A stretch of 64,000 bases of DNA from Convolutriloba macropyga (GCF_964194025.1 NC_134476.1:54126001-54190000); one strand, 5' to 3'; shown: positions 13,746 through 63,945, counted from the first letter of the stretch. Program-made: numbers and translations. The notes: a model not told the origin generated them from the sequence alone.

Positions 13746-13770
13746 ATTTGTGCCGTTCTTTTCGAGCGCC

Positions 13771-22866: not shown

Positions 22867-22934
22867 CTGCCTATTAAGTTATTCATCAACAATCCGTTAA
22901 GACAAATCAAAATCTTTTGCATGTGCTAGCCAAG

Positions 22935-23831: not shown

Positions 23832-23846
23832 CTATACACACTCGAA

Positions 23847-28358: not shown

Positions 28359-28494
28359 TATAGCTGTGTAGTAAACTCTACGGGGGGGGACTTTTGGACT
28401 TTTTGACAGAAAAATCTCTTCTCCGATTCGGAAAAGTGATTTTTTGTCAAAATGTCCCCCCCCCCCCCCCCGTAGAGGTTACTATACAGCTATA
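28359..28494. repeat. Inverted repeat / MITE-like fold-back
   Basis: tatagctgtgtagtaaactctacgggggggg pairs with cccc...cgtagaggttactatacagctata. Confidence 0.7.
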
Positions 28495-29037
28495 TATACT
28501 ACTCAAGTTCCTAACAAACGTAGTCTTCGAAAGTCAACAATGAATGTGTTCCTTTAGAAATGGCTTACAAAAATTGAAAATACCTAAAGAACCAGTTGCT
28601 CGTATTTAATTGCTCTCAAACGAAGTTTAGTATTTATATTAGTCGTAGGGTCTTTCTATGCAATATGTTTTCGCTTTAAACGTAATACATATGTTCTAAT
28701 GGTGCAGAGTTGTACCTGTTTGAAGCCTCAATTTGACATGTACTGATTCATATGACTCTGAGGCTATTTATTTACAAAATTTGCTGGTGAACTTAGTTGT
28801 GGCCTTAATTGTTGTCTTTCGATGTGTTGCTGTTCTAACTAAGTCTACTTAATTTCAAACCATATCGGCTTTCGCGAATCGTTATCATGAAATTTTCTTT
28901 GAGTTATTAGTTTTGCCCCTAATTTGTTTTTATTGAAGTCTCGTTCCTTACTTTCATTATTTTGAAGTTTTGTCTCCGTTTTGTATTGTAGCGAACTTTA
29001 GTAGTTTTTGGAGGGTTTTGTTTTACAGGAAATGTTT

Positions 29038-29525
29038 TTAATTGCTCTCAAACGAAGTTTGTAACATTTATATTAGTCTTGTTGATAGAATTTTTCGCTG
29101 GACCGGTTTTTCGTCTGACCCATTTGACTTTTCGTCCTCAAAAGCGGGTAAACAGGTAGCACCCAGCGGGCATTAAGTTCTCTTGGAGCCTTCCAGCTCA
29201 CTAGTCTCCAACTATGCGATTTACAAACTGTTTTGGAGACTTATACTGCTGGTGTGAAGGACGGTGCTTGGAATTTAACCCCCCACATCAGCCCCCCCAT
29301 AATCTACCCCTGCATATCGTTCATGTCGTAAGGTCCCCGTGCAGCCAAAGACCCCCTCGCACCGTTGTCCCACCCTCATTAGTCCCCCGCTTTACCTCCC
29401 CCCGCTGCGCTCACGCCACGCCCATCCAATTAAGCTAAAGATAGCCTCTCTAAACCGTGGCTGGCTACTGACGAAGCCAACATGTTTGAGAGCAACTCGC
29501 CCCCCGTTAGTTGATTGTTATTCAA
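29038..29525 (+). mobile_element. HINE/DINE-1-like non-autonomous repeat, copy 1
   Basis: 5' aattgctctcaaa, shared core (gacttttcgtcctcaaaa...ggtagc), C-rich centre, and inverse subTIR tttgagagcaa at 29485. Confidence 0.6.
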
Positions 29526-30009
29526 CTTTGACTCTATTTTTTTCCATTAACTAACTATTTGATTTCGCTCATTGTTTTTTGTGCAGATATGTTTCTTGTC
29601 AATTAGTCTTATTAATGTCAAAATTTATCGGCTCTCCAATTGGGCATACATTAATCTAACAAATGGTTCAGTTTAGTGATTAATTGCTCTCAAGTAAAAT
29701 TTGTAGCAATTATATTAGTCCTTTGGTCTTTTTACGACTCTTAGAGGAGTATTGGTGTTCAACAGGTTTCTACGACTCAGACGAGTAGTGAGATTCAACA
29801 GGTTTTTTAGCGGACGCAAATTTGTTCATGACTTGAATTTTGACTTCTTTCTATTCGAGAAATTTACCTCCGTTTTTGATTGTTGTTTTCTGTTTCCTGA
29901 ACATTGGACTTTAACAATAGCTGTCTTTAATGTATAGCAATTCGGAACTACTGGTGATATTCATGTCGAAGAGGTCAATTTGCGAAATTTTGATTCCATT
30001 TAACCACTT

Positions 30010-30350
30010 CCTAACCCCCTCCAAAATGTAGCCTTCCCCCATGTACCCGAACCCTCCCCCCACACGCACATACACCACGTATCACCTCCTCCCCACACCG
30101 CGTACCGCCTCCTACCCCCCCCCCCCCAACGTAACCCACACCCCCCACGTAACCACACCCCCCACGTAACCACACCCCCACCCCCCCCCCCCCCCCCCCC
30201 CGTAACCCCCGCCCACCACCGCTCCCCTCTCCCAACTTAACCCCAAACCTACCCCCCGCAATACACCCCACGCCATGTACCCCTCCCCCCACGTAACGCC
30301 AAACCGCACCTAGCACCCTACCCCAACCTAACCCCCTCCATACCCTTTCA
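30010..30350. repeat. C-rich low-complexity tandem repeat (ccccacgtaacc-like units); G-rich on the minus strand
   Basis: Direct inspection. It produces only spurious Gly-rich ORFs. Confidence 0.85.
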
Positions 30351-30488
30351 TTGAATTAAGAATTGTGTATGCGTTTTTTGCAACTCTTTACAATTTTTGC
30401 TGTCTCATTTTTGATTTCGGTAAAAGTTGATTTTAGGTTAAAGGTTTTAATCAACACCTGTTGCGATAATAGCAGTTGAATAAAGTGA

Positions 30489-32323
30489 CAGTGTAATAAC
30501 TTTTAATGCCCGATCGACACTGGAAAAACACTTCTGCATTAGACTACGAGTTTCTCACGCTCTTTTCTCGACACTGTTACTAAGTAAACAGTGGCGATAA
30601 AAGAGTGGTGATAAACTCGTAGTCTGGTAGTTGGGACATTTGAAGTTCCATGGAACCATCGCTTTCGAAACCATTAAAGTTAGAAGTGCTCGGTCCGGCT
30701 TATGTAGCACTAATACGTTTCTTTGCTTTAGCGGATCTTTTATACACTCTGAGAGCAGTATCACTCTTATGGCCCGAGATTTGTTTAACCTCGCTCTCAC
30801 TGTGGCCAGCGTCAAGGAGCGCTGTTACTGACGACGCTCTAATAGCATGTCCTGACCAAAGAAAATTTGTATCCCAACCAGCAGCTCGTGCAATTTCGGA
30901 CATAATTTTTCTCAAGAAATTGATTCCCATTGGCTGATTGTTGTACCACCGGTTGCCTCCTTTACCATTTATACGATTATAAAATCTTGATAATTTGACG
31001 GAATTTTGGACATGTAAAACTGGACAATTTGAACAGGACAGTTTTCTTGAAAAGTGGGATATATAAAAGCTTGTTTTGGCTGCGAGCCTTTAGTTCTAAT
31101 TCTACCACTATGATTTTTTGATATGCGTTCGTCATATCGAATGTAGCGTTCTTGTCCCATTCCAATATTTGTAATTTGTGGGTTATTTCCCCATGCTAGT
31201 TGATGCTGCTCTTTGCCTCCTCGCAAGCAGAAAAATTTGCCAATACACTGTCCATAATAATTGTTTTTTCCTGAGAGTTTTTTCCTAAAATTTTGCGTTG
31301 CCATAAATGTTTCTCCATATCTTCGCTCACTGACAAAAAAAATGTTTTTTTTACAATACTAGGAAAAAAAAATCAGTGGTGAGATCTGAAAGTTTTTTAC
31401 AAAATGAAAGAAACTTTTGGCCAAATAACGCACAAAAAACAACAGTTGTTTGTACATAATCCGTCCAAATATCTCTGGCAAAAAGAGCAGTTACAAAAGT
31501 AGAAAACAAATGGACAAATTAAACATAAAGAACAACAGTTGTTTGTGTTTAATTTGTCCAATTGGTTTCAGCTTCTGAAAATGCACTTTTTTTTTACCGA
31601 GCTCAATTACAGATGCAAAAAAAGTATTTCATTGTTTTCTGTTGCCAGAAAAACAATATCCCAATATCAGCTTGTCTTGGGTGCCCATTAAGACCCCTAG
31701 CTGATAAGTTTTTCATCCTCTTGTCAAGTGCGAGTTGGAAATTTGAGGTTTTTCAGAGTAGGAATTGCACCCCCTGAAGTTCATTGTGTGTGGATCAGTC
31801 ATAATTTGTGATTTCACAAACTTTTTCTCCCCTTTTTCACCAACCTCTTTCCCCACCCACCCATCTTCCCTTAAAAAAACAACCATGAGTTTATCAAAAA
31901 CTTTTTCCTTTTGATTGGTCCTTCAAATACATTTGAATTGTTGCTGCAATGTGGTACAAAGTTCTTGGTGAAAATTCGTCACCATTCTAGTTTTGACTTC
32001 ACTAATGAACATTTTCAAATAGTTATGTGTGGCTCCTGGAAAAGTATCAAAAATGCTATCCAAAGACACTTTCAAAAGTGTTTCATCAGTTGCAGTTTCG
32101 AGCCATTTATTCCAGAGTTTACACACCCATGAAAATATACGCAGGGAATTTTTGCTCAAAAAAGTCACTCATTTTGACTGTGTTCAATTTTGAAATGATC
32201 GCAACAGGGCTTGGTTAAAAAAAATTACCACACGGTTGATATCGCCCTCGAAGTTATCATAACACCTCGGCTTCGCCTCGGAGTTTGATAACTTCTCGGT
32301 GTCGATAACAACCGTGTGGTAAT
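30489..32323 (-). mobile_element. Decayed Crypton-type (DUF3504/ZMYM-KCTD1-like) tyrosine recombinase element with flanking hairpins
   Basis: Pieces in order on the minus strand: FISEVK / NGDEFSPRTLYHIAATIQMYL (~32000), LDKRMKNLSARG..RQAD (~31720), EKHLWQRKILG, FCLRGGKEQ, SKNHSG, CPV, then WY..QPMGIN..GHAIRASSVTALLDAG..ISGHKSDTALRVYKR with the catalytic R, HxxR, H and Y residues. Frameshifted. Confidence 0.85.
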
Positions 32324-33534
32324 ATTCATTAATATACGACGCTTTGAGTCGTTTCCGGTATTCTACCGGCTGTGTTTTTTTAGCAGAAAGCATGTTTGGT
32401 CATGACTTGAATTTTGACTGCTTTCTATTCGAGCAGGTATCTTCGTTTTTGATTGTTGACATCTGTTTTCGAAAGTTGGATTTTAAATAGCTTTGTTTGT
32501 GATGTATAGCAATTGGGACCTACTGGTAATATTCAAGGTGAAAAGGTCAATTTGAGAAAGGTTTTAATGTATGACGCTTCCAGTCGTTTCCGGTATTCTA
32601 CCGGCTATGCTTTTTATGCGATTTTTCGCTTGATCGCGACCGCTTTCATCTGACCCATTTTACTTTTCGTCCTCAAAAACGGGTTAAACAGGTAGCGCAC
32701 AGAAGACATTAAGTTAGAGCCCTAGGCCTTACTATTCTCTTACGAATGCGATCCGCCAAAACCGTTTTGGGGAGAAAATTTCATGGTGTGAAGGGCAGTT
32801 CTTTATCTTGAAAGCTTGACCCCTTTTCGCTTGCCAGCAGTTATTGTTTAGATTTCTCTTATTTTGTTTCATTTTACGCATATACGCTTATGCGCCATGT
32901 TTGCTAATTTTATCGATGGCTGTTCTACTGTTGTGGTTGCTCCTGATATTTATTGTGTACCGTCTTGATTTTGTGATTTCTAATCGGTCATACAGTCAAA
33001 TTCTTCAAGTCTGAGGTCATTCTTATTCAACTGAGTTGTTGGTGCCATCCGTGATAAGAAAAGTTTGTCAACGGTGGTTACTAGTTCGTGTGTTTTGTTT
33101 TGGGCGATATATGGAATGCTTGGAAAACACCAAACTAAGAGTTTCTTTAATTGCTGGCTTGTTTTCACTGCAGGGCATCTCTTGGGAGATTTCTTTAGCT
33201 TTATGGGCTCAGTATTTGTATTGATTTCTCAAAAGCCTATTTTTTCAGGATTTTTTTTGGTAAATACGTGATGTGGAGATTTTACAGACTAGCAGTTTCC
33301 TTTATGTACCTGGAATAATGTGAAAAGGGGCCTTAAGGGAACTGATAATTTCCTCTATTTGTTCGCATTGAATAGGTGGCAGAATCCAATCGATGCCAGT
33401 TATAAATCAATTCAAATGGTTATGCGGCAAAAACTCTCTTGCAAAATTTTAAAATTTTTGGAGAATGTTTGATAGTTTGAATTTCAGCGGTGGAGGGTAA
33501 ACAGTAAACAGTCGTAATTCCATTGTTAATACAG

Positions 33535-33716
33535 GCTCCTCTACAATGGGTGAAGTGCAGGTGTTTGACGCACATCACCTGGTGCCAGTGGTGACAATCC
33601 CTGCGCATGACAACCCTCTAACTGCAATGAGTTTCAACAGGACAGGAGACAGATTAGCCACTGCCTCTGATAAGGGAACAGTCATCAGGGTCTTCTCGAT
33701 GCCTGAGGGCAATAAG
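33535..33716 (+). CDS. WIPI2: WIPI1/2 coding exon 2
   Basis: acag|GC acceptor continues the frame ([14 protein letters not shown]...AHDNPL...[14 protein letters not shown]). Donor AAG|gtac. Confidence 0.95.
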
Positions 33717-34151
33717 GTACAATTTATAATCCGTCATTTTATGTATTTAACATTAAACAAACTTTTGGTGCACTAATTTTGTGGGAACGAAGCCTAATGC
33801 TTCCAACTATAAATTGACCAAAAATTTATTTCCATCTACAACGTGAAAGATGCTTAATTGTATCTCCATCTGAAAGAAAATGAGTTCTCTGATTGTTACT
33901 GGTTGCAATTGATAAGTGCTGTTGTGTTAAGAGAAGCGAACTTCCGCTGACCTCTCAGTTTGTTAATAGACGAGGTGCGATTGCAAATTGCTCAATATCA
34001 GTTCACAATAAATACTAGTCAATATTGGGCTTATTTTCGAACATGATGCTAAGTATAGAGAAGTCGATATAAAATCTTCTGCTCCTTCGAGGAAAATTCG
34101 TGAAATTATCTGATTTTGATGCTTGTTTAACTGAAATTTGTGTTTATGTAG

Positions 34152-35183
34152 ATGTTTGAGTTTCGACGTGGAGTAAAACGGTGTGTGACAATTTATTCTC
34201 TGGCGTTCAGCAACGATTCACTCCTTCTTGCCTGTTGCAGTAACACTGAAACTATCCACATATTCAAACTAGAATCAGCCTCAGCCAGCAGAGGCTACTC
34301 TAAATCAGTAGCTTCAAATGGACCTCACAGTGCGGCCTCAAATCCAAGTTTAGACGACAATTCAAATAGTCGGACATGGATAGGATATTTCGGTCAGGCA
34401 ATTCTGGACAGTGCTTCCTATTTACCAACAAATGTAGGGGAGATGTTTACTCAAGGAAGAGCAGCGTTTCAAGCCAGGATACCATTCTTTTCCGAAGATT
34501 CCACCTACTTTAATACGTGTGCTCTGACATGGATCAATAAAATTTTACGGCTTGTCGTTGCTAGCACCTCTGGTCAGCTTTACATGTATAACGTGGATCT
34601 ATCAGATTCAACAGGTGAATGTCCTCTGATAAGGCAGCATAAAATTGACGGCAGCACTGGCCTGGGTGTGGGAGGAAGTCGCAAATCGAATGGTTCCAAC
34701 AACAACATCTCAAGAGGTTCCAATTCAAGTCCGCTATCAGAAAACTCTAAAAGGGTTTCAGGTGCTTCTAATAGTCGATCGAACTCGGCCACATCGTTTG
34801 ACTATGCTGCTACTCAAAACAACGTTGTCACCACCGAAGACTCAGTGAGTCCTCTAGGTGGTGTTGACATCCCTCCATCTCCGATTGCAAGGTGGTCGGA
34901 GTTCGATGAAAGAGATCCAAAATTTGCTCCGAGTGGAGCACCGTTAGCATATCCGTACACAGCGCCTGTTGTGGGATCATTTGGCTCGTCATTGAATGAC
35001 AGGCAAGGATCATCACCAGGCAGTAATTCTGCCAATCAGGGAGGTGTAACCTATGCCGGTATGTTAGGAACGTCGCCTTCGGGTGACAGAAGTCTTGATG
35101 ATGTCTCTGCCCGGTTCAAAGGAGGCATCAAAATTGACGATGAAAACGAGTTTCCGCCTATGACTATGCATACGGATGATTGA
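34152..35183 (+). CDS. WIPI2: WIPI1/2 coding exon 3 (terminal); spliced product 557 aa
   Basis: tag|ATG acceptor. Contains the FRRG phosphoinositide-binding motif, SNTETIHIFKL, a Ser/Asn-rich tail and C-terminal EFPPM. Confidence 0.95.
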   Translation: MFEFRRGVKRCVTIYSLAFSNDSLLLACCSNTETIHIFKLESASASRGYSKSVASNGPHSAASNPSLDDNSNSRTWIGYFGQAILDSASYLPTNVGEMFTQGRAAFQARIPFFSEDSTYFNTCALTWINKILRLVVASTSGQLYMYNVDLSDSTGECPLIRQHKIDGSTGLGVGGSRKSNGSNNNISRGSNSSPLSENSKRVSGASNSRSNSATSFDYAATQNNVVTTEDSVSPLGGVDIPPSPIARWSEFDERDPKFAPSGAPLAYPYTAPVVGSFGSSLNDRQGSSPGSNSANQGGVTYAGMLGTSPSGDRSLDDVSARFKGGIKIDDENEFPPMTMHTDD

Positions 35184-37631: not shown

Positions 37632-38090
37632 TTAATTGCTCTCAAACGAAGTTTGTATCAAATATATTAGTCCTGTCGGTCTTTTTTTATACGATTTTTC
37701 GCTTGACCGATTTTTCGTCTGACGCTTTTGACTTTTCGTCCTCAAAAACTGGATAAACAGGTAGCGCCCAGCGGGCATTAAGTGCTCTTAGAGCCTTTCA
37801 GCTCTGTTTCAGCTCAAACTGTTTTGGAGACTTATACTTATGGTGTGAAGAGCGGTTCTTAGAGGATGATACACCCCCCCCCCCCACCTGTTGACCCCCC
37901 ACCCCCACTATTGCCTCCATCCCCCACCGCGCTGTTGACCCCCCACCCCCACTATTGCCTCCATCCCCCACCGCGCTGTTGCCCCCCCCCCCCAAACCAG
38001 TGTTGCCCCCCATCAGCCCCCGGTACACGGTACACCCCCCCCCCCCCCGTGGCTAGCTACTGACGAAGACCGACGTTAGTCGGTTATGTT
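37632..38090 (+). mobile_element. HINE/DINE-1-like repeat, copy 2, with expanded C-rich central repeats
   Basis: Same 5' end and core as the 29038 copy. Ends in gctactgacgaag followed by the accgac-gtta-gtcggt hairpin. Confidence 0.6.
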
Positions 38091-50042: not shown

Positions 50043-50474
50043 TATACTCGCCGCTTAAATGGGAGTATACAAAGAGAGTTTAACTTTAAAGTTCTAAAGA
50101 CAAAAGGAATGGAATTAAAAATTTTATTATAAAAACAGTTAAGGCGGTACAGTATGAATAATGAGTTAAGCAATATCGATATCATATGTTTACTTTATCA
50201 ATCTATTGAGCAAGTGTGTGGTGACAATTGAAGAGAGGAATATCAGATGGCTAACTAAATTGGAATTGAAGTGAACAAATGGTTGAAGTGAACGATACTG
50301 AATAACTGAATAACTGGTTGATATAAAAACTAGCTTCCTATATATAGTCAGCAAAGTGGGAATTAATTTCCCATATTTTTAAAAGTGGGATAAAACATCC
50401 CATATTAGTTTTTGGGATAAAAGTTCCCATTTTATTTTTGGGATAAAAGTTCCCATTTTCTCATTTTCAGTACA
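50043..50474 (-). repeat. 3' LTR (TGTACT...AGTATA termini; AATAAA at 50128-50123)
   Basis: Identical to 61633-62064 except one substitution (50091 vs 61681). Terminal hairpin tatactc-N13-gagtata. Confidence 0.97.
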
Positions 50475-50618: not shown

Positions 50619-51236
50619 TTAGTTTCCTTCAAGTTGATTTATTCTGTTTTGCAAAAATTTTATTCGGTTCATTAGATTCGCGTTCTTCTTCTTCTCTCGT
50701 AAGAAGTTTTGCTCCAGTCCCAGCGTGTATGTGTCCCGCTCGTTGTTGAGGTCTGCGGTTATGAACTGGTAGGGGACTGTTAAGTTCTGTCGGTCGAGGG
50801 ATATATTCTTTAGTCGATATGTCTTTAATTTTGAGTTATAAGATTGGATCTTATAAATATTTCCCTCTGGTAGCACTCTGTATTGGAGGCCCCAGTCAAA
50901 GTTTGGGTGTCCTCTAAATTGCCTATTCCTCGTTCTTTCTTCGTTGAATTTCTGTTTTTCCAATCTCTGGCTCATGCTAAGGATTCGTGGCTGTATAGGG
51001 CAAATTGTAGCTGTGGGTTTCATGTGGGTGGCTGTCGGAGCAATCGTAACTTCTGTTAAATCCAATTTTTTTTCTCCTCTCCCGGTATTGATAGTGTGAA
51101 TACTCTTCCCTGGTGTAGTTCGTACTGGTTGTTGTTCTGGTGGTTCCTGTTGCTGGCCCATCAGTTCCTCGAAGGTATCGGGGAGAATGAAGTCATCTAG
51201 GTCTGGCATGTCATCGTCACCTTCGTATCCTAAATT
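50619..51236 (-). CDS. 3' accessory ORF / predicted exon 2 (acidic start, basic middle, leucine-zipper C-terminus)
   Basis: 196 aa ORF from the ATG at 51209, extendable by 9 codons to the acceptor ttatttctatttttag| at 51237 in phase 0. Confidence 0.75.
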   Translation of the reverse strand, partial: NLGYEGDDDMPDLDDFILPDTFEELMGQQQEPPEQQPVRTTPGKSIHTINTGRGEKKLDLTEVTIAPTATHMKPTATICPIQPRILSMSQRLEKQKFNEERTRNRQFRGHPNFDWGLQYRVLPEGNIYKIQSYNSKLKTYRLKNISLDRQNLTVPYQFITADLNNERDTYTLGLEQNFLREKKKNANLMNRIKFLQNRINQLEGN

Positions 51237-51359
51237 CTAAAAATAGAAATAACATAAATGTGTAGTATGGATAAGATATTTATTTTCTATATATATAACA
51301 AACTAATTATTTGTGTTTTTATTTATAGTCGTGTATATTTTTTAAAGTCATTATTGCTT

Positions 51360-53570
51360 TTATACGGGAGAAATTGGATTATCTCCATTTTCTTCTATTG
51401 CAACATTGTTTTCATGTCTTTCATTTCTAATTGCACTATATAATGGGTGCGGAATATGTGGATATAGATTAAAGTGTGTTTCTTTCATTTCAGTTACTAA
51501 ATGTTCAGCATCATCTGGCTGTTTCTCATTGGTTGTCTCATTTTTAAAGATAGAAGTCATAATAGAAGTGAACAGAATATTGTAAGTGGCAAATAAGATG
51601 ATTTTGCCAAAATTAACAGAAGCTCCTGTTATTTTATGTATTTGTAGGGCTTTTACAATTGTTACAACAATTTGAATAATAAATTTCAAGAAAAGAAAAG
51701 CGGCAAAATAAATTCCACATTGCTCTAAGATAAATTGTGTATAACCGAACATTTCTATATAGCGGTTATCAAAGAAATTAGGAGAAATAAAAGAGTCTAA
51801 GTAGACTGTTCTCATTGGATAGTTAAGATAAGTTCTATCCTCACTTTTAAAATTATCTTGAGAAACAACAAGTTCTTTAGAGAAAGTTTGTATAGCATCT
51901 TTCATTTCGTTATTGAATTTAATTCCGCGCCAGAATTTCTTTAATTCTTGATCAGTAAATAAATATATTTCATCACTATCCTGGAATTTGTATTTAGTTA
52001 ATCTCTGTGGAGCAATATTAGGTTCAAAAACAGAGGGTCCTTTGACTCTAGTTATACCCGGTGTTAATTCAACCCAGGAGTTATCATCTTCAATATCTAA
52101 TTGAAATAAATTATCGTGTTTATCTACACATGATCGTTCTTCAGCGCTAGTGTATGTCTTTCTAGTAATTGGATCAACGAAATGTATTTTATTTTGATAC
52201 ATTATTGGAATTCTATTATAACATTTCTCCATAATTTGTAAGGGTGAAAAATACTGTGGGCAATGATATAGCCATGCAACATTATCATTAGTCTCTAAGA
52301 ACATTGAGCGATTATTTGTTAGTAAGAATCCAGCCATACGTGGATTACTATGCGAATAGACTAAATTTGTTCTCTTTATAGCACGTTCTAACTCACAATC
52401 GGTTTTTATCATTTGTAAATCTAAAAGCTGTAGTCTTCTTATATTAGTATATTCGTAATAGTCAAATTTCGTTCCCATATGGGCTTCATAATTTATTCCT
52501 GAGTGCAAATCAATATTTGGCTCTCCATTTGTATATGAAGTTCGTTTTACGAGCAATTTGCCTCTTGTGCTATTTACATAAGTATTTTTTTACAACATTT
52601 GGAATTGGTTTTTTGCCTTTCCTGTATCCATATCGAATCCTCCTTCATAATGTATATATAATGAGCTATAAGGAGTAGGATAAACTATTTTGTTTGAGTC
52701 GCAAATTGACTGTGGATTATTATAAATCTGAAAAATGAAAGTATTTCGTGGCCCTTTAAATGGTTGCGCACGTCTAATAACAGCTTCTGTTGATTCAGGT
52801 TCAGTTTCATATTCTCTTACTATATAATATTTTCTATCTATTTGTATCATTTTTACTGGAGCTGTGTGTAATTCTTCTATTATACAATTTTCTCTATTTT
52901 CCCATGTATATGCATAAGGATCAGTTGATCCACTGTCACAGCCATTTTTGTTTAGGCTACAAGGCAGAGGAATATTATAGTGGTTATTTACCGTTCCATC
53001 TTCTAAATTTACTAGTAATTTAATATCTTGCATATATGTCTCGTAAGTATCGTGGTAGATCCATCCTGTTTCTGTGCACTCATTACTGTATTTATCACTA
53101 ACGTCGCCCTTATTTATAACTGTTTGTTTCTTTACATTTTTTGTAAATGGAACTTTGTTAGTGTTAATAGTCGCGGAGCCTGTTTTCTTAGCTTCGAGAC
53201 ATTGCTCGGCTGTTAATTTAATATCTGAGCTAATAGTTGCTTGTGTAGCGGATAAACCACTATCGTCAAAAGTATCACAATACCACTTTAGGCGTTGATG
53301 TGTAGCTTTACACATAGTTGCTTCTAATTTAGTCTTATAATTGCGCTGCATAATAGTAGCAGTTGCCTCACTTACTTTTATTTTCTCAGTATCGATATCG
53401 CATGGAGCTATTTTGTTTAATGAGTACATTTTATTAGAATCTATTTTAGAACAATCAAAGTGTCCTACTTTTACTTTCTTTAGAGTATTTTTAAATTCGG
53501 AGTCTGCGTTGGCTCCATTTATTGAAAGTAGTGTGGAAATTATTAGAGGTACAATTACAGGTACTCTCAT
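51360..53570 (-). CDS. env: Env-like class III fusion glycoprotein (chuvirus/Monjiviricetes-like), ~736 codons, with one in-frame TAA at 52592-52590
   Basis: Signal peptide MRVPVIVPLIISTLLSINGANA. Cys pattern FDC, CKATHQRLKWYC, LPCSLNKNGC..YTW, CELER, LYHCP, CYNRIPI, FVDPITR. C-terminal TM. The two track ORFs are in the same frame, separated by a single stop. Confidence 0.85.
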
Positions 53571-53618
53571 ACTGAAAGGGTAGAAATTTGAACAAAGAAG
53601 AATTATAAATTTACTTAC

Positions 53619-53702
53619 TTCGATTATTTCGTCCAACACTTCTGGATCGGGCTCGGGGAACTGAAAGCTGGTTAGCTCAACTGTTTCTTGTTCTGAATTC
53701 AT
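53619..53702 (-). CDS. Predicted exon 1 of the spliced accessory protein (28 acidic codons)
   Basis: ATG at 53702, MNSEQETVELTSFQFPEPDPEVLDEIIE, then the consensus donor GAA|GTAAGT in phase 0. Confidence 0.6.
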
Positions 53703-53703
53703 C

Positions 53704-53922
53704 TTAATATTCAATTATGTTAGTGAAGGTATGAATGCTTGAAGGGATTTTAAATTCGAAGTTGAATTTTAAGGCAGCGAATAGACTTGATGTGTCTTTC
53801 ACTAGAAAAGTCTCTGTGGTTAAATCGGAAAAGAGGAAAGTAGCGTAAATAACGCTTAAGTCGTTAGCAGGAAAGAAAGTGGATTTCAATTTGGCTAGTT
53901 TGCCGTTGATTCTGATAAGCAT
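53704..53922 (-). CDS. 72 aa ORF just downstream of the internal promoter (uORF or small accessory protein)
   Basis: First ATG after the predicted TSS. Its TAA is followed after one base by the ATG at 53702. No recognisable motif. Confidence 0.35.
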   Translation of the reverse strand: MLIRINGKLAKLKSTFFPANDLSVIYATFLFSDLTTETFLVKDTSSLFAALKFNFEFKIPSSIHTFTNIIEY

Positions 53923-53949
53923 TTAAATGCTGACTAAGAGATGAAGAAG

Positions 53950-54240
53950 GAAGAATGATTTTTTGTGTTTTTGCTCCCTTATTTATAGTGTGCAAAATGG
54001 GCTGTTTCATCTCACTTTTAGAAATATGTCTCAAATATTCCCATTTTTAGTGACGGTTTCTGTCTTTTTATTGGCTGGGAAGATATTCCCATTTTTTAGA
54101 CCAGTTTGTGCAATTTCATTGGTTTTCATAGTTTGGGAATGTTTATCCCATTTTTCTATTCAAGTTTTCATTTTTTATTGGTTTTTAGAGTTGGAGTTTC
54201 TATTCTCCTTTTATTTATAAATGATAGAATTTGATTGGCT
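53950..54240 (-). promoter_or_regulatory. Predicted internal promoter between pol and env
   Basis: TATAAATAAG starts at 53987 and Inr TCATTC has its A at 53956 (-31 spacing). Four CCAAT boxes (~54070, 54118, 54177, 54234). TGGGA-N6/7-TCCCA at 54076 and 54134 plus two degenerate copies. Confidence 0.7.
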
Positions 54241-54276
54241 AATAATAAAATCTTTTTGTTCTGTGTATTTAAATTT

Positions 54277-57200
54277 TTATTTCTTTTTATCCTTTAAAGC
54301 GTCCCATGGAATAGGATCATTAAATAACTTTGTAGCAACTGCTTGTCTACCAGACCTTCTGGGTTCAGTAGGATATAATTTTTCATTTACTGATTTATTA
54401 GCTAGTGGGGTTGTAGGTTGTGTAGTAATGACTTGTGAACTACTCTGAAAGTTAAAGGGACTTATATCATGTGCTAATGGTTGGGGGGAATGAGGTGTTT
54501 GTGGATAACTAAGAGGTCCTCTTGGATATGGGGTAGATATATGCTGTGGCCTAAATGACTTACTAGGCGAAGTAACTTGCTGTTGTGTGTTAAATAATGT
54601 TCGGAGTCCTAATGTGTCAATGCCTGAATCAATCGGAGGGTTATTGCTACTACATCTAGTAGTAGTATTAGTAGAAGTAGTAGTAGTGGGTCTACTATTT
54701 GGGAGTTGCGGCGGCGTTTCAACATTGTTGAATACTGGCCAAGGCATATAGTGCATAAAATTACTAGGTTGGGTAGTATTAAATTTGTTTATGTAATGCC
54801 TGTTATAGTTATCATAGAATTGTTCGGGTTCAGCATATACAGTAGTATAATCGGCAATTAAGGGTTGTATTTCTCTTTCCTTCGGAAAATATTCTACTAT
54901 ATGGTTTCTATGCACTACTCTTTTTTGTTGCGTCTCGTCTCCTTGTATTTCATATGTTGTATTAGTTATATGTTTTGTAACAGTGTATGGACCGGACCGA
55001 AGTGATTGTAGCTTCTTAGATATAAGCAAGCTCTTAGAATGATTTTCTAGTAGGACTTTGCTTCCAATGCTGATTGGTCGTCCGAGCTTAAATCTATTCC
55101 TATATTCATGGGCTTTATTTGTAACTTGACGACAACGAGTATAAGTATTGCAATATATGTTCTTAAAATCTGTTTCGCGTTGTAGTACAGTATTGGATAA
55201 TCTATTTTGTAGTAGATTATCTACCTTTTCGTTTTTACACGAATTTTTACAATGTGTATGCGACGGCAAGTCCTGACAATATTGAGATATACAATTCTTC
55301 TTATTATCCCGCAGCAATCCTAGTCTAAGTGAAATAGGTATTTGTGGCTTTATTCCAAATATAATCTCGTACGGCGTATAACCAGTACTATAATTCACTG
55401 CTGTATTATGCGCAAATGCAAATTTGTCAACAAATTTTGCCCAATTGTTTCCAGTAGTATTTAGAAAGTGTCTAAGATAGTTTGTAAGGTGCTTATTTTG
55501 AATTTCTACTTTCCCGTTAGTCCAAGGGGAATATGCTGTTCGTGGCCTCAGTGTAATTCCAAGCTCAAAAGTCCAGTTTACAAAATCACTACTCATAAAA
55601 GCAGTACCGTTATCATGTACTATGTGCTGAGGTATTCCGAAGATAGTTATAAATTTCTCCATTTGTTTTATAGTCTCGTCAGAAGTAGCGGACTTAACAG
55701 CATATACTTGTACATATCTAGAGAATGAATCTACAACTACAAGACAGTAGTGTTTGCCATTACTAGAAGGCCGAAAAGGTCCTTTATGGTCTATATGTAT
55801 AGTGTGGAAGGGAGTTGTCTCCAATTCGCCCCATTGTTGTAAGGGTGCTTCGTTTAAATCGTGTCTTTTACTTTTATTCTTTTGACAATCTAAACAATCG
55901 TGGATTAACATAGTAACCCATTTGTACATTCCGGGCCAGTAAAAGAATCTGGATATATTGTTTAATGTACTAGCATCGCCACGGTGGCCACTCATAGGGT
56001 TACTATGTGCTAGCTCGAAGCACTTTAGAAATAGTGAGATAGGAATACATATCTTTAGTTCGAAGGAACCATTCTCATTAGGTTTATTGTAACATAGTAG
56101 TTTATAACTCTCATCTAGTAATAATAACTTATATATACTCTTGTAAGCTTTTAATGCTTTACATTGTCGAGTCATATAGTAGTGTTCAGGTTCTTTGCCT
56201 GATTCTATCCATTTCCGTACTATATGTAATACAGGGTCTTTATTTTGTTCTTGTAGTATAGTGTCAATATCTAGTTGTGCCTTTTTAGCAAATTCAGTTA
56301 ACTTCGTTAGCAAATCAGAGCAATCTGATTTGACATTCTCATTATGTAGTGCTGTTGACTCTATAATAGTATAATGCTTTGTACGCTCCTTGTAGATTTC
56401 TTTTGCCTTCTCTAGTGCATGTATTAATGTTGGATCGACTAAATTATCTATAACATCACTAAATTCGTCGTCATTATATCCTGAGTCGTCCAATTCTACA
56501 TAGTTTACTTCTTCTTGTATTTCACTATATGTATTGTCCGATTGTTTACTATCTGTGAGCTTAACTATTTGATTTATATTTTTGCCAAATTTGAAATAGT
56601 CGGCTACATTATGTATAGCATTACAAGAGTCTGTAAATCCTTCGGGTGCGTCAGAAATACTAAAATCATTATCCGATATATTCATTACTTTTCTTGTTCC
56701 ACCTTGTACTTGTGCTAGTATAGGATAAGAATCGTTAGACGAGTTTGTTTTATCCTCTTTGTGCAATACAGAGTAAGAGACTGGCTTTAAATCCGAAGTG
56801 TAGAAATTTATATCCTTAGGTATTGTTTTATGTTCAATCTGAAATTTCTTCGCTTCCTCTATTGGGACTTGTCGACTCAGTAAATCAGGAAATGCTAAGT
56901 TCTTGCCTTCGGTGTATATAATTTTTAAGTTCTGGAATTTAGTTAGGACGACTTGATATTTGAAAAATCTGTGCGAAAGTTGTCCGCGCCTAGACCATAA
57001 AAATAGTATTGGCCTGTGATCGCAAAAGAGGTATATGGGAAATGGCGATCCTATTAAATAGAATTCATACGTTTGTAGTGCGGATATAATTCCGCATAAT
57101 TCTCTATGCTGTGGGGACATTTTCTGTTCAGCTTTGTCGAATACTCTAGAGTTCGCTGATACAATTCTTTTTCTATCAGGGAATTGTTGTATAAGTATAC

Positions 57201-59940
57201 AACCAGTGCCTAAGTTAGACGAGTCAGCATGTATATGAAATGGGTAGTTCGCATTTGGAATTGCTAGTGATATATCATGTACGAACTTTTCTTTTAGTAT
57301 ATTGAATACTTTCTCGTGTTCTTCTTGCCATTTGAAATTTACATCGCCTCTTGTTAAATCGTACAAAGGCTTAGCATCTATATGAAAATTTATCACATAG
57401 TTCGAGTAGAATCCCATTGCTCCTAATACGCTAAGAACGTCAGTTTTTGATTCGGGAGTCTTTAAGTTTCTAATGTCGTCAATACGCGATATAACTGGGG
57501 AAAGTGTATTTTCTGATATAACGTGTCCGAGAAATTTTACTTTTCGTAAGAAGAACATTGTTTTATCCGGTGCGGCTTTTAAGTTAGCCTTTCTTAATAG
57601 AGCATGATATTCTTTTATTATATTGAACATTTCCTCTTTAGTATTAGATTGTAGTAGTGTATCGTCAATATATGTAATAGCCTTCTTTTCTTTTATAAGA
57701 GGTCCGAATGCATAGCGCATTAATTTACTAAAGAAATTGGGTAGTGGTTTTAATCCGTAGAAGCCGACTTGATAAGTATACTGTCTTCCTCCTATTATAA
57801 ATCCTGTTAACTTTTGTGTTTCGGGCGTTAGCGGCACTTGATGATAAGCACAAGAAAGGTCGCTGCTTGTAAAATATGATCCATTCACTCGGGTTATTAG
57901 GACTTGTAGTGGTTCTAACGGCCAACTTGAATTACTTGTGTCAGTAATAGAGTTTAGATAACGAGCATCTATTACTAGTTTGACGTAATCCTTCTTAGGA
58001 AGGATTATGATCGGGTTAACGAACCAGCTATTCATATCGTCATGTTCATCTAGTTCTCTTATAATGCCTGCTTGTATTAACTCGTCCATCAGTAATTCGA
58101 GTTTATCCCTTAAATGGAAGGGTACTTTACTAGGTCTTTGCTTTTTGAATTCTGCATTTTTTATTAGGGATATATTAAATTGTTGTTTAGTACGGCCAAT
58201 GTCATATTTATGATGTGAATATACATCGTTGTCTGTAAGCAGTATATCTGCAAGTCGAAAGAATTCGTTCTCAGTCAAGTCGGTTTGTGTAAAATCGAAT
58301 TTTTGTAGGAATTCCATTTTATTGAAGTGAGTATTTTGTCCAGCATGTACACTTGTAGTAAATTTATCTATTAATTCTTTTACTTGATATTTTGAGCGGA
58401 ATATTGGAAATTGTTCTCTTGATTTGGGTTGGCATATCCTTTTTGCCTCTTTAGAAAAGTCAGTGGCAATATCATCCTCGCTTTTACATTTCTCCACTAG
58501 TTCTCCTGCGGATAGCTCCATTATTTCGGCGATATGCTCGTCAGTGAGAGGACGATTTTCTATATTGTTTATTAACTGTAATTCTTTGCCACTAATGTAT
58601 ACATAAATAGTTATTCCCGTGTGCTTAAAGTGTTCTTCTAGTTCTTTAGCTATTCTTTTCCACAATCTGGGGTCTCCGCCACATGCTATCTTAGGCATAG
58701 CAATACACCTTATTCCGTCAAGCATAAGTGTCTTTTGTAGTTCACAAAATACTGAACAAGTTTTACTTGCTTCGTATGGGGGAGAGTTATAATATTCCTT
58801 CATTACAAGACTATATATAATCTGCTGACTATACTCATCTTGAAAATGTATTAGTTCGTGGTCTACCTTATTCTCCGATCCTATACTTTTAAAGTATTGT
58901 AGAATATTCCTCTTTAAGTTGGGGTATCTTTTAATAAGGGAGGCAGTAAAGCCTTTGTCTAATACTAAGTCTCTAGATATAGTATGGATAATAGGCATAT
59001 TAGCGTCGAATATCGAATGTTCGTCAAAGTTAATATACCTAATACACTCAGCAGTTAGGTCAGTGGATTCGGATATAGTATTTGTAGTTGTATTTAGCAT
59101 AAAACAACTATCAAGCTCTTCGCATTTATTTATAACAGAATAAGTAAATTCGTTGCAGTCACGAATACTGTATTTTTGTGTATTGTTTGTAATATCACAT
59201 ATAGTAAATCCAATTATCCCTTTATTTAGTGTAACTTGATGATTTTTGTGGTTTTCGATGAGCAGGGGAATTTGTTTTTCGTTCTTAGTACAAATAGTAT
59301 TTATAAAGCACAACTCGGTTTTTACTGTAGTCCTATTAGGTACAAAAGAAGTGCCTTTCGGAAATATATCTTGCTCACTACACTTGTGCTTGTAGAGAAA
59401 TGTAGACTTAGGTGGGATATATAGAGGCTGGTGTATTATCACTGCGTTCAATTTAGAGACTTGGGGATATTCCTTTTCATTATTTAGCGAGCCATAACTA
59501 AGAACTCCTTTATCACTAGTCTTCAGTTTTACTGCTGGAATATCAAAGTATAATGCTTTAAGAAATGTATGACAAAAATCTACTCCTAATAAATTAGAAG
59601 TTTTCTCCTCAGTAACCCATACTCTATGATTTGCTTTATATTTCCCGTCTGTATCAAAGTATGAAGTTAGTATAGTGTAGCCTATCATGCGTATTTCGGA
59701 ACCGTTATAGGTTCTTGTTTTATTGCCTGAAGTCTGGATATTTATTTGTTGTCCCAATTGGTTAAGCTCAAGAAATGTTGGGTAATTTATTATAGTGCAA
59801 GTTGATCCTGGGTCGATCATGAATTCTATTTCTAAGCCACTATGTTTTTTATTGTCTCCGGTAGCAAAGTGATATAAGTTCAAGAAAATTCGGGCTTTGG
59901 GATTTGATGTGATATTCTTATTTTTCGGAGACCGTATTAG
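54277..59940 (-). CDS. pol: Pol via -1 frameshift: protease, macrodomain, RT, RNase H, integrase
   Basis: IDPGS protease site, TARG1-like macrodomain at ~59043-58597, RT YIDD at 57672-57661, RNase H ADSS/RELCG/DHRP, integrase HHCC, D-D-E and GPY. The frame is open up to the slippery site. Confidence 0.96.
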   Translation of the reverse strand, partial: LIRSPKNKNITSNPKARIFLNLYHFATGDNKKHSGLEIEFMIDPGSTCTIINYPTFLELNQLGQQINIQTSGNKTRTYNGSEIRMIGYTILTSYFDTDGKYKANHRVWVTEEKTSNLLGVDFCHTFLKALYFDIPAVKLKTSDKGVLSYGSLNNEKEYPQVSKLNAVIIHQPLYIPPKSTFLYKHKCSEQDIFPKGTSFVPNRTTVKTELCFINTICTKNEKQIPLLIENHKNHQVTLNKGIIGFTICDITNNTQKYSIRDCNEFTYSVINKCEELDSCFMLNTTTNTISESTDLTAECIRYINFDEHSIFDANMPIIHTISRDLVLDKGFTASLIKRYPNLKRNILQYFKSIGSENKVDHELIHFQDEYSQQIIYSLVMKEYYNSPPYEASKTCSVFCELQKTLMLDGIRCIAMPKIACGGDPRLWKRIAKELEEHFKHTGITIYVYISGKELQLINNIENRPLTDEHIAEIMELSAGELVEKCKSEDDIATDFSKEAKRICQPKSREQFPIFRSKYQVKELIDKFTTSVHAGQNTHFNKMEFLQKFDFTQTDLTENEFFRLADILLTDNDVYSHHKYDIGRTKQQFNISLIKNAEFKKQRPSKVPFHLRDKLELLMDELIQAGIIRELDEHDDMNSWFVNPIIILPKKDYVKLVIDARYLNSITDTSNSSWPLEPLQVLITRVNGSYFTSSDLSCAYHQVPLTPETQKLTGFIIGGRQYTYQVGFYGLKPLPNFFSKLMRYAFGPLIKEKKAITYIDDTLLQSNTKEEMFNIIKEYHALLRKANLKAAPDKTMFFLRKVKFLGHVISENTLSPVISRIDDIRNLKTPESKTDVLSVLGAMGFYSNYVINFHIDAKPLYDLTRGDVNFKWQEEHEKVFNILKEKFVHDISLAIPNANYPFHIHADSSNLGTGCILIQQFPDRKRIVSANSRVFDKAEQKMSPQHRELCGIISALQTYEFYLIGSPFPIYLFCDHRPILFLWSRRGQLSHRFFKYQVVLTKFQNLKIIYTEGKNLAFPDLLSRQVPIEEAKKFQIEHKTIPKDINFYTSDLKPVSYSVLHKEDKTNSSNDSYPILAQVQGGTRKVMNISDNDFSISDAPEGFTDSCNAIHNVADYFKFGKNINQIVKLTDSKQSDNTYSEIQEEVNYVELDDSGYNDDEFSDVIDNLVDPTLIHALEKAKEIYKERTKHYTIIESTALHNENVKSDCSDLLTKLTEFAKKAQLDIDTILQEQNKDPVLHIVRKWIESGKEPEHYYMTRQCKALKAYKSIYKLLLLDESYKLLCYNKPNENGSFELKICIPISLFLKCFELAHSNPMSGHRGDASTLNNISRFFYWPGMYKWVTMLIHDCLDCQKNKSKRHDLNEAPLQQWGELETTPFHTIHIDHKGPFRPSSNGKHYCLVVVDSFSRYVQVYAVKSATSDETIKQMEKFITIFGIPQHIVHDNGTAFMSSDFVNWTFELGITLRPRTAYSPWTNGKVEIQNKHLTNYLRHFLNTTGNNWAKFVDKFAFAHNTAVNYSTGYTPYEIIFGIKPQIPISLRLGLLRDNKKNCISQYCQDLPSHTHCKNSCKNEKVDNLLQNRLSNTVLQRETDFKNIYCNTYTRCRQVTNKAHEYRNRFKLGRPISIGSKVLLENHSKSLLISKKLQSLRSGPYTVTKHITNTTYEIQGDETQQKRVVHRNHIVEYFPKEREIQPLIADYTTVYAEPEQFYDNYNRHYINKFNTTQPSNFMHYMPWPVFNNVETPPQLPNSRPTTTTSTNTTTRCSSNNPPIDSGIDTLGLRTLFNTQQQVTSPSKSFRPQHISTPYPRGPLSYPQTPHSPQPLAHDISPFNFQSSSQVITTQPTTPLANKSVNEKLYPTEPRRSGRQAVATKLFNDPIPWDALKDKKK

Positions 59941-61226
59941 TTTAAAGGAAATAAATCTGAGATAGCGTCACAATAGTCAACATTGTTTTCTTCCTGTTGA
60001 ATCCAACCAACGTTGTTTTCATTTTGCGTATTATATGACTTTGTCTCTTGTTGTAAAGTAGGCCTTGTATTACTATGGGCTTGATTTCTATTGAATTGGC
60101 TGTTTTCACGCTCATAAAATTGTTTAGCAGCATATTCATTTTGCCGAAATGAATTTTCTCGGGGGAATCTTTGGTCATATTGCTTATTTTGGTTAAATCT
60201 ATTGCCGTACTTGTAGCCGCTCTGGTTATTATAAAAGGAATTTGGGTTTTGGGCTCTGTTATTATAACTATTATTCCTACTATTGTATTGGTTGTTATTC
60301 CAAGCACCTCGTCTGTAGTTATTACTAAATGTAGGCTTAGTCTCTTTTTGCTCTAATAATTCCTTTCTAATCTTTTGTACTTCGTCGTCTAACTTCTTTT
60401 TGTTACAGGTAGAAATAGAGTGTCCGTGGTTTCTACAATACTCACAGAACCTAGTATTATTGGCTCGTCCTTTTATATTCGGGTCTCTATTGAAGTTGCT
60501 TGTATTTTGTATAGCACTTACTTCATTACTTTTTATTAAGCTTGTAAGTTCCTTAATTTGTGTCTCTAAGGACGATATTTTGTCTGAAGGTTGTTTAGCC
60601 GAATTCTCATTAATAACTATACAAGTTAAATCTTGTGTTATCAGATGTTCTTTTAAATCGTCCCAACTTTCGTTAGGTTTCTTAATACGCCGTTCATGTG
60701 CTTTTCGCTTTAATGAGGGGGGTTGCAGTCCCCTTATAGCAAAATCTATATATTTCTGTTCTCTTTGTCTAGATTGTATTACTGCTTCTTGCGCTCGATC
60801 AGCATTAGCTACATTTGTTAAGTCTTCTGGCCAACCTTTATCAACCGCGTGCTTGACTCTATGAAAATAATTTTTTATTAATTCGCCTTCTTGTCTAGAA
60901 GCATTTTCTACTTCTAATCTATGCTTAAATTTATCACGACCGTCAGTAAATCTATCAAGAAAGTCATTTTTAATATCATTTAAGACTTTAGCCTCATCGA
61001 TAGTATTAAAACATTCTAAGGCTGTATCGGTTAAAAGGGACCCAAATAGAGATCTCTGTCTATTTTCATAACTCTTTTTCTTATCAGGATCAGTAGGAAC
61101 AACTCCTAACGAAAATTTTACTTTTTGATCAACAGAATTCCAAAAGTCAAGAGCACTCTGACTGGGATCGTTACCTGAAAAAGTAGTTAAAGACACATTA
61201 CTCAAAGAAATAGGAGCATCAGCCAT
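59937..61226 (-). CDS. gag: Gag (429 aa) with CCHC zinc knuckle and N/Q-rich tail
   Basis: CEYCRNHGHSISTC (CX2CX4HX4C). The ORF ends at the T TTA AAC TAA slippery site. Confidence 0.92.
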   Translation of the reverse strand: MADAPISLSNVSLTTFSGNDPSQSALDFWNSVDQKVKFSLGVVPTDPDKKKSYENRQRSLFGSLLTDTALECFNTIDEAKVLNDIKNDFLDRFTDGRDKFKHRLEVENASRQEGELIKNYFHRVKHAVDKGWPEDLTNVANADRAQEAVIQSRQREQKYIDFAIRGLQPPSLKRKAHERRIKKPNESWDDLKEHLITQDLTCIVINENSAKQPSDKISSLETQIKELTSLIKSNEVSAIQNTSNFNRDPNIKGRANNTRFCEYCRNHGHSISTCNKKKLDDEVQKIRKELLEQKETKPTFSNNYRRGAWNNNQYNSRNNSYNNRAQNPNSFYNNQSGYKYGNRFNQNKQYDQRFPRENSFRQNEYAAKQFYERENSQFNRNQAHSNTRPTLQQETKSYNTQNENNVGWIQQEENNVDYCDAISDLFPLN

Positions 61227-61611
61227 TTTTATTTAAAATACTTGGACGTTTGCCAAGTCTTTATTTTATCTAAGATAAATTAAGTGTTTCTGTAAGTACC
61301 AGAGACAACTTTAGATAGTCTAAGAATTACGTCCTCTGGGTACAATTTATTTTTATTTGAGAACTTAGAAATTTTTCTAAGTCTTTTATTAAAGTCAGAT
61401 AACTGACGAAAGATAGAATATTTTAGAAATAGCTGATACAAATTTAACATAGAATTTAAAAATAGTGTTAAGTTCGACTTACTTAAGTCAGAACATAGAA
61501 ATGAGACAACTTGGAAATTTTTCCTAAGTTTTTTGCCTCGCAACAGATTTTATTTAAGTTAAAGATTAAAGTTAAAGTCTTTAAAACATAGAATTTACTA
61601 ACCTTGAGTGA

Positions 61612-61629
61612 GCCTCACTGGTCGCACCA
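61612..61629 (-). other. Primer binding site TGGTGCGACCAGTGAGGC
   Basis: Begins with TGG, 3 nt after the 5' LTR. The complement GAGCCTCAC-N5-GCACCA looks like a tRNA 3' end (Ile-UAU/Met-like T-arm); identity is uncertain. Confidence 0.85.
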
Positions 61630-61632
61630 ATT

Positions 61633-62064
61633 TATACTCGCCGCTTAAATGGGAGTATACAAAGAGAGTTTAACTTTAAAATTCTAAAGACAAAAGGAAT
61701 GGAATTAAAAATTTTATTATAAAAACAGTTAAGGCGGTACAGTATGAATAATGAGTTAAGCAATATCGATATCATATGTTTACTTTATCAATCTATTGAG
61801 CAAGTGTGTGGTGACAATTGAAGAGAGGAATATCAGATGGCTAACTAAATTGGAATTGAAGTGAACAAATGGTTGAAGTGAACGATACTGAATAACTGAA
61901 TAACTGGTTGATATAAAAACTAGCTTCCTATATATAGTCAGCAAAGTGGGAATTAATTTCCCATATTTTTAAAAGTGGGATAAAACATCCCATATTAGTT
62001 TTTGGGATAAAAGTTCCCATTTTATTTTTGGGATAAAAGTTCCCATTTTCTCATTTTCAGTACA
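61633..62064 (-). promoter_or_regulatory. 5' LTR: four TGGGA-N7-TCCCA palindromes, TATATATAG at 61936 and Inr-like CCAGTT (+1 at 61905)
   Basis: Palindromes at 61947, 61976, 62003 and 62029. The TATA box is 31 nt upstream of the Inr A. Confidence 0.85.
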
Positions 62065-63543: not shown

Positions 63544-63945
63544 AATTGCTCTCAAACAAAGTTTGTAGAAATTATATTAGTACTGTGGTCTTTTTTATTC
63601 GATTATTCGCCTGACCGATCTTTTGCTTCACCCTATTGACTTTTCGTCCTCAAAAACGGGATAAACATGTAGCGCCCAGAGGGCGTTAAGTGCTCTTGGA
63701 TCCTCTCAACTCATTGGTCTCCAAGTATGCGATTCACAGAAACTGTTTGAGATTCACAGAAACTGTTTTGGAGACGTATACTCATGGTGGGAAGGGTGCT
63801 ACTTACGAGTTTGACCCCCCGCTGCGCTCACCTCACGCCCCATCAATTCAGCTAAAGCGAGCCCCACTAAACTGTAGCTAGCTACTGACGCTTGCCGCTC
63901 GCCGGTAGATTGAGAGCAATTCGCGCGACATTAGTCGGCTTTGCT
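63544..63945 (+). mobile_element. HINE/DINE-1-like repeat, copy 3
   Basis: aattgctctcaa (63544) and ttgagagcaatt (63910) form a 12 bp subterminal inverted repeat, followed by a short hairpin. Same core as the other copies. Confidence 0.65.

Follow-up and report, generated by a model that had tools for sequence, protein, structure and literature searches.

A predicted internal promoter and a putative first exon shared by env and an accessory gene in an env-carrying Ty3/gypsy-type element of the acoel Convolutriloba macropyga

We analysed a 64 kb stretch of DNA (64,000 nucleotides, hereafter the window, with positions counted from its first letter), the RefSeq proteins identical to parts of it being labelled as those of the acoel Convolutriloba macropyga. 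The minus strand carries a complete LTR element of ~12 kb (62064-50043) with gag, pol, env and, after env, a further ORF of 205 codons. Outside the env region its landmarks are:

61633..62064, minus strand: 5' LTR, 432 nt, TGTA...TATA
62045, 62019, 61992 and 61963, minus strand: four TGGGA-N7-TCCCA palindromes in the 5' LTR
61936 and 61905, minus strand: core promoter of the 5' LTR, with the TATA at 61936 and an initiator whose +1 A is at 61905
61612..61629, minus strand: primer binding site (PBS)-like sequence, 18 nt, TGG...
61597..61605, minus strand: candidate major splice donor, AAG/GTTAGT, rank 6 of 418
59937..61226, minus strand: gag, 429 codons, with a TTTAAAC heptamer at its end (59946-59940)
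54277..59967, minus strand: pol, with protease (weak), macrodomain, RT, RNase H and integrase
50043..50474, minus strand: 3' LTR, with AATAAA at 50128

The element is a recent Ty3/gypsy-type copy with a Monjiviricetes-type env. Its LTRs show a single difference over 430 compared bases, and a target-site duplication, ATTA, was read from both of its flanks; these, the PBS and the pol domain order are the Ty3/gypsy features that were found. The order protease-RT-RNase H-integrase is also that of BEL/Pao elements and retroviruses, and the assignment to Ty3/gypsy (Metaviridae) rests on the Pfam domains, of which RT_RNaseH, Integrase_H2C2, rve and p58_C were strong and the protease weak (E = 0.068). 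Pol lies in the -1 frame relative to gag and would be reached by frameshifting at TTTAAAC, which we take to be a frameshift-type heptamer. Between protease and RT, pol also encodes a TARG1/C6orf130-like macrodomain (~59100-58528, minus strand), missed by the Pfam scan and recognised by a match to PDB sequences (E = 3e-6) and to Atlas Macro clusters (0.94), which possibly removes ADP-ribose marks of the host. The ~110 residues between protease and macrodomain (59520-59188, minus strand) recall by eye a degenerate dUTPase-like segment, with no match in Pfam. The stretch 5' of the 3' LTR (50490-50475, minus strand) is not a clean polypurine tract, and for the PBS neither a tRNA gene within the window nor a match in the tables of Chary and Hayashi accessible to us was found.

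Elsewhere, the window holds a host WIPI/PROPPIN gene with long introns (21740-35183, plus strand). A LINE with two ORFs, apparently intact, lies within that gene at 22878-26675, and fragments of a second LINE are found at 17031-20402. Positions 1-15500 consist of near-identical tandem units, ~4.3 kb long (others 3.9 kb), whose short ORFs on the minus strand matched no known family, and dispersed short repeats of 60-86% identity occur in four copies (29078-29284, 32644-32818, 37683-37875 and 63591-63819).

The env region contains the following features:

51360..53702, minus strand: env, PF24664 fusion glycoprotein, 780 codons in intact copies
53619..53702, minus strand: acidic leader of 84 nt or 28 codons, read as the shared first exon, phase 0
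51237..53618, minus strand: accessory-gene intron, GT-AG, 2,382 nt, holding the rest of env
50619..51236, minus strand: accessory exon 2, 205 codons

In the window copy env is broken by a short out-of-frame patch that ends in a stop (52592-52590), both pieces matching PF24664 (Monjiviricetes_fusion) above the cut-off. The gene is open over 780 codons in other copies, 780 aa being the length of 8 of the 15 listed members of the env protein cluster (56 in all). Both a gB/Chuviridae-type env after pol and multiple near-identical copies with an open env were found. Relatives at the DNA level came to two loci, both in metagenome contigs (L001 and L002), with none in viral contigs and none in the genome contigs searched. 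The first encodes an Env of 38% identity, has nothing of the region 5' of env and opens with an inverted duplication that is probably an assembly artefact; the second is internal. A large related family (cluster 4, represented by P0004, 243 members) has an Env precursor in which ~110 additional residues and another hydrophobic segment are located between leader and ectodomain.

Env very probably lies within an intron of the accessory gene, a reading supported by gene models from outside our analysis. Four C. macropyga RefSeq accessions (XP_075248249.1, XP_075251444.1, XP_075258953.1 and XP_075249952.1) describe a 233-aa protein made of the 28-aa leader and the 205-aa ORF, joined exactly at 53619/51236. 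They comprise three distinct sequences on scaffolds of three different lengths, and are predictions for near-identical copies that may share the same reads, one of which may be the window locus itself. Gene models of the RefSeq type usually draw on RNA-seq. At the 3' end of the intron, a U-rich TAG ends at 51237 directly 5' of the 205-codon frame; by a generic animal splice matrix it ranks only 66 of 759 AG sites in the element, by U content it is the first of 176, and it is similar to the acceptor that the host has in front of the WIPI exon at 34152. In L001, likewise, a U-rich TAG stands 50 nt past the env stop and is followed by a phase-0 ORF of 199 codons whose first Met is far downstream, with no significant similarity between this ORF and accessory exon 2 (E = 0.42). 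Two more small overlapping ORFs follow there (L001 3198-3696, plus strand), one ending in a hydrophobic stretch and the other coiled-coil-like.

A different reading has translation of the accessory ORF begin within exon 2, at the Met of codon 10, on another RNA, the RefSeq join being an artefact and the leader belonging to Env only. That early Met is where prokaryote-style callers start the protein (196-198 aa), and a TATA-like ACTATAAATA is present near 51330; yet donor and acceptor agree in phase 0, the acceptor at 51237 leads by U content, the post-env ORF of L001 has no early Met, and a gene model that skips an open 2.3-kb ORF would be unlikely to arise without junction evidence. We consider translation from the internal Met very improbable and retain the env-spanning intron. 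The stretch between the env stop and the acceptor (51359-51237, minus strand), in which the TATA-like motif lies, also contains two AATAAA (51323 and 51284), at which env RNA might end inside the intron; this arrangement was not seen in L001.

The accessory protein had no match in Pfam, PDB sequences or the Atlas, and its predicted structures (mean pLDDT 44 and 47) were well predicted in the C-terminal helix only. Exon 2 encodes an acidic start, a basic stretch, a possible beta part and a C-terminal coiled-coil-like helix, and the N-terminus of the protein is acidic and rich in Asp, Glu, Phe and Leu. The N-terminus may resemble acidic activation domains, and the helix leucine zippers. The presence of palindromic boxes in both promoters (the second is described below), together with these acidic and helical features, suggests a dimeric transactivator. 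As a tentative possibility only, the protein could be a regulator that works as a dimer, has an acidic activation region and acts on the palindromes or on splicing or export of env RNA, a role as RNA-export or splicing regulator being the alternative to transactivation.

The leader opens at the ATG at 53702, encodes nine Asp/Glu and no Lys/Arg, and ends at a GTAAGT whose donor (53618) ranks 3 of 418 GT sites by the generic animal matrix. Left unspliced, it stays open and in frame through to the hydrophobic signal region of Env, with GTAAGT read in phase 0 as Val-Ser. The same arrangement of leader, Val-Ser and hydrophobic signal in one open frame was found in four env lineages: Val-Ser occurs in 11 of 12 covering members of the window family and in 6 of 7 of cluster 4 (48% identity to the window env), and is also found in clusters 2 and 3 (52-53% identity; 11 and 12 members covering the start, respectively) and in P0198, the donors in these other lineages being deduced from the protein (Val-Ser) rather than from DNA. 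The background chance of Val-Ser within 25 positions is 0.08. The Met that follows Val-Ser is missing from 4 of 10 cluster 2 members, three of which are full-length (769 aa), from 2 of 12 cluster 3 members and from P0198, as it is from 5 of 14 proteins of the window family, and judged from these proteins the internal Met is dispensable for Env. We regard it as likely that Env translation starts at 53702, and the leader would thus form the N-terminus of both Env and the accessory protein within the overall model given below.

The leader is not universal. It was missing in all six members of cluster 5, leader and Val-Ser occurred together in just 1 of 35 further env N-termini (a second protein flagged, P0107, proved to be a mature-domain match), and most distant envs carry their own signal peptide directly at the start. 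The shared leader is therefore a feature of one subclade and does not extend to every element of this kind. When 33 N-terminal segments of env were placed in a tree, restricted to rows with a real N-terminus and leaving out the rest of the 148 new matches, a branch with a support of 87/92, which is under 95, set the leader-bearing rows to one side, with the L001 protein as their neighbour.

An earlier note on this DNA proposed another route to Env, in which a donor just behind the PBS is spliced from 61603 to 53571, Env starts at the Met at 53570 and the acidic leader belongs to the accessory gene only. The site in question is:

53568..53597, minus strand: proposed acceptor and Met, a strong motif in the window copy only, within the coding sequence of the Env signal region

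As regards motifs, the description was accurate. The pyrimidine tract and CAG ending at 53572, the T at 53571 and the ATG at 53570-53568 are all present, as are the GTAAGT at 53618, 47 nt separating the two sites (53618-53572), and the donor AAG/GTTAGT with its G at 61602, 9 nt past the PBS (61629-61612). By the generic animal matrix, which was not fitted to the host C. macropyga, the acceptor ranks 2 of 759 AG sites and the donor 6 of 418 GT sites in the element, the Met lies directly 5' of the best hydrophobic stretch, and a signal peptide at the very start is what most distant envs have, all of which speaks for this route.

Conservation speaks against it. The window reads Phe-Ser-Met at 53572, where the AG is formed by the first two bases of the Ser codon (AGT), whereas all 14 related proteins covering the site (12 of the 15 listed cluster members, P0174 and P0087) have Asn, and because Asn codons are AAY no AG is possible between Phe and Met in any of them, as read from the protein sequences. 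This AG-less set includes all eight listed intact envs of 780 aa. The proposed start Met is itself retained in 9 of the 14 and replaced by Ile (three), Lys (one) or Val (one) in the remainder, which are fragments of sister subfamilies, and three Met-less relatives from a sister subfamily carry three additional residues, in frame, inside the supposed 47-nt intron. Removal of that intron, offered in the earlier note as a second use of the acceptor, would shift the frame and reach a stop after 26 more codons, besides depending on an AG private to this copy. The missing AG and variable Met refute the splice from 61603 to 53571 as the mechanism of the family; with the window env broken, the acceptor is a private change in a defective copy and therefore at most a cryptic acceptor. 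We judge the route extremely improbable. The accompanying idea that the acidic extension is an accessory exon holds as regards the exon, which the RefSeq models join at 53619/51236 and not at one of the junctions listed there, and fails in denying the extension to Env, which the leader would serve as well as the accessory gene. More generally, the strong splice motif of a single repeat copy may be a private change.

The spacer between pol and env provides a candidate 5' end for RNAs that would begin with the leader at 53702, and includes a small upstream ORF:

53951..54151, minus strand: predicted internal promoter, motif-based, with full palindromes at 54150 and 54091 and a half site at 54044
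53987 and 53956, minus strand: spacer core promoter, with the TATA at 53987 (-31, as in the LTR) and an initiator, TCATTC, whose +1 A is at 53956
53930..53953, minus strand: pyrimidine tract and TAG ending at 53934, a candidate alternative 5' end by cis- or spliced-leader (SL) trans-splicing
53704..53922, minus strand: ORF-A, 72 codons, its stop one base before the shared ATG

In the window copy, to which the examination of the spacer motifs was confined, TGGGA-N6/7-TCCCA has 10 matches over the 64 kb, eight in the LTRs (four in each) and two in the spacer, against 0.09 expected. A TATA and initiator 29-33 nt apart occur at three places only on both window strands, the two LTRs and the spacer, with a distance of 31 nt in each. 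Such a pair arises in 16 of 5000 shuffles of the spacer, and U3 and spacer align colinearly up to the TATA box with a score that was equalled by none of 694 control stretches and by 5 of 1000 shuffles; because the promoter patterns were chosen with the sequence already in view, the figures are somewhat flattering. On the strength of these motifs, it seems fairly likely that the internal promoter is the main source of env and accessory RNA.

ORF-A comes first on the predicted internal RNA. It has two full-length homologues (92% and 90% identical) and no Pfam family, and the depletion of ATGs in it was not significant (P = 0.08-0.11). Its own ATG has a T at -3, a weak start, and its stop adjoins the shared ATG, from which we infer leaky scanning or re-initiation. 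One protein, P0087, represents a deletion copy that fuses the start of ORF-A to the env signal region. In contigs of one study that look like genomic DNA, 15 of 50 joints were compared and none matched a splice junction, and neither the acceptor nor the donors were among the 40 of 1,651 variant places compared, results that speak neither for nor against splicing. A joint at 53563-53982 has no GT at its start and was taken for a deletion in a single copy.

The acceptor ending at 53934 ranks 17 of 759, with 17 pyrimidines among 18 positions, lies 22 nt past the predicted start at 53956, and would yield the same message body without an internal promoter. This opens a second route from the LTR, in which the donor at 61602 is joined to 53934 (weakly, to 53703), Env is made from the singly spliced RNA and a second splice (53618-51237) gives the accessory message, as for HERV-K env and rec, the spacer boxes being enhancers or a minor promoter; both routes can coexist. 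The position of the donor is in its favour, the chance of so good a site being ~0.015 within 30 nt of the PBS (0.17 within the 385-nt leader), as are the quality of the acceptor, one-base insertions at 53934 in other copies that preserve the pyrimidine-AG, and the rule in gypsy that env RNA is spliced (in the portion of PMC8096092 available). It leaves unexplained, however, a TATA and initiator at the exact LTR spacing with LTR boxes upstream; the pyrimidine run at 53934 doubles as the initiator region, the acceptor at 53703 ranks 611 of 759, and two acceptors in the gag leader, 61403 and 61290, are closer to the donor and would, if used, remove three upstream ATGs. We consider this route unlikely, though less so than the others set against the internal promoter. 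The donor itself may serve a 5' UTR intron before gag that removes these ATGs, and pairing with another partner than 53571, be it 53934 or an acceptor in the gag leader, is possible. The upstream ATGs belong to a word, TTCTATGTT, which occurs three times between PBS and gag (61589, 61496 and 61450, minus strand), a repeat region that is possibly a packaging region. At gag codon 18 (61175-61174, minus strand) a pyrimidine tract and CAG are followed immediately by GTAACG, which combines the top-ranked donor (1 of 418) with a fair acceptor.

The same site at 53934 could instead receive a spliced leader, trans-splicing either processing the internal RNA or cutting the message from a longer RNA, with the rest as in our model. 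Trans-splicing affects 30.2% of genes in a related acoel, Symsagittifera roscoffensis (PMC9911081, as far as its text was accessible), and the site, an acceptor that is rich in pyrimidines and unpaired, stands 12 nt ahead of the first ATG, but the outron from the +1 at 53956 would be ~23 nt, which is very short, and we think this variant quite improbable.

Our preferred reading, to which we give a probability of about 0.6, comprises an internal promoter, one shared start, Env from an intron-retaining RNA and the accessory protein from a spliced RNA. A U3 promoter copy in the pol-env spacer would direct an RNA of ~3.85 kb from ~53956 to the 3' LTR, on which ribosomes would bypass ORF-A owing to its weak start context, or restart after it, to reach the ATG at 53702. 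Where the donor at 53618 goes unused, the leader would read into the signal region and produce Env with an acidic N-extension of 28 residues; where it is joined to 51236, env would be removed as a 2,382-nt intron, leaving a 1.5-kb RNA for the 233-aa accessory protein. A single splicing choice would thus determine how much Env is made relative to the accessory protein. The motifs, phases, open frames and conservation on which this model draws are present in the sequences themselves. Firing of the promoter, the Env start at 53702 and the bypass of ORF-A we infer from them.

A bolder extension, which we regard as unlikely and offer as speculation, is that an acoel Ty3/gypsy lineage independently evolved a complete complex-retrovirus circuit, with early and late phases, outside Retroviridae. 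The internal promoter would first yield the spliced 233-aa protein as a dimeric transactivator with an acidic activation region, which would bind the TGGGA-N7-TCCCA palindromes, two in the internal boxes and four in the LTR, and would then turn on genomic RNA and the intron-retaining env RNA.

Judged by its sequence, the element fits the class of gB-type env-carrying Ty3/gypsy elements of Chary and Hayashi (HSV/gB-type, ‘ancient errantiviruses’; PMC13524379, in the parts accessible to us), with which it shares the gag-pol-env arrangement, a gypsy-type pol, a class III-type env related to the Chuviridae glycoprotein, and many near-identical copies. It differs from that class, as described in those parts, by two additional genes, by an intron that spans env and by the macrodomain of its pol. 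A term search of the PMC13524379 text and seven supplement files available to us found no acoel element, and the text that was accessible does not mention splicing, promoters or macrodomains. LTR elements make up about half of the S. roscoffensis genome (PMC9911081, accessible text).

The closest parallels to the shared exon are Rec of HERV-K(HML-2) and Rem of MMTV, in which, according to the available portion of PMC2649029, the accessory protein is likewise made by splicing out most of env, its N-terminus is common to Env, and the Env signal peptide is N-extended. A shared first exon with env spliced out is given here by the RefSeq models, which are predictions, and by the open frames; an Arg-rich NLS and a short second exon inside env were not found. 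In Rec, the part common to Env is 87 aa long and includes an Arg-rich NLS, and 18 aa follow from a different reading frame within env (PMC2649029, same portion), whereas here the common part is 28 acidic residues without Lys/Arg and the other 205 aa are encoded by an exon lying wholly past the env stop. The element is no retrovirus and no member of the Rec class, and sequence similarity was not found.

The internal promoter of foamy viruses lies inside env, whereas the one predicted here is placed ahead of env and can be recognised as a U3 copy. What would be alike is the use of a second promoter for accessory genes, and what differs is that foamy Env comes from an LTR-spliced RNA (both from the accessible part of PMC7828637); foamy Tas activates the internal promoter as well as the LTR (PMC13220597, accessible part). 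In layout, the likeness to Sireviruses appears closer than that to foamy viruses. Palindromic motifs stand 5' of the TATA in their LTRs and recur shortly before env, where they were proposed to act as an internal promoter, though the authors could not identify a promoter, and no env-spanning accessory intron is described for them (PMC2829016, the portion available). Sireviruses differ in being plant elements with the Ty1/copia order (integrase before RT), absent here, and the window element has, in addition to such motifs, a TATA and initiator at LTR spacing.

Drosophila gypsy also expresses env from a subgenomic RNA, which arises by splicing of the LTR transcript and in which the upstream exon supplies the env start codon (PMC8096092, available portion), and splicing from LTR RNA is typical for third ORFs (PMC5408684, in the part accessible). 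In the window family, by contrast, the acceptor proposed for an LTR-to-env route is not conserved, an acceptor directly 5' of the env start, as in simple retroviruses and gypsy-type elements, being absent from all 14 relatives. We found no description of the layout proposed here for a gypsy element in the literature searched, to which subscription papers and preprint supplements did not belong. Env-carrying Ty3/gypsy elements are known across animals, and how gB-type envs are expressed is not addressed in the accessible parts of PMC13524379; the window family offers a concrete answer that is unlike textbook gypsy, with a predicted second promoter, a putative shared first exon and env nested in an intron of the accessory gene. 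If true, hallmarks of complex retroviruses, a Rec/Rem-like exon and a foamy-like promoter, would have arisen again, in a retrotransposon with an unrelated fusogen.
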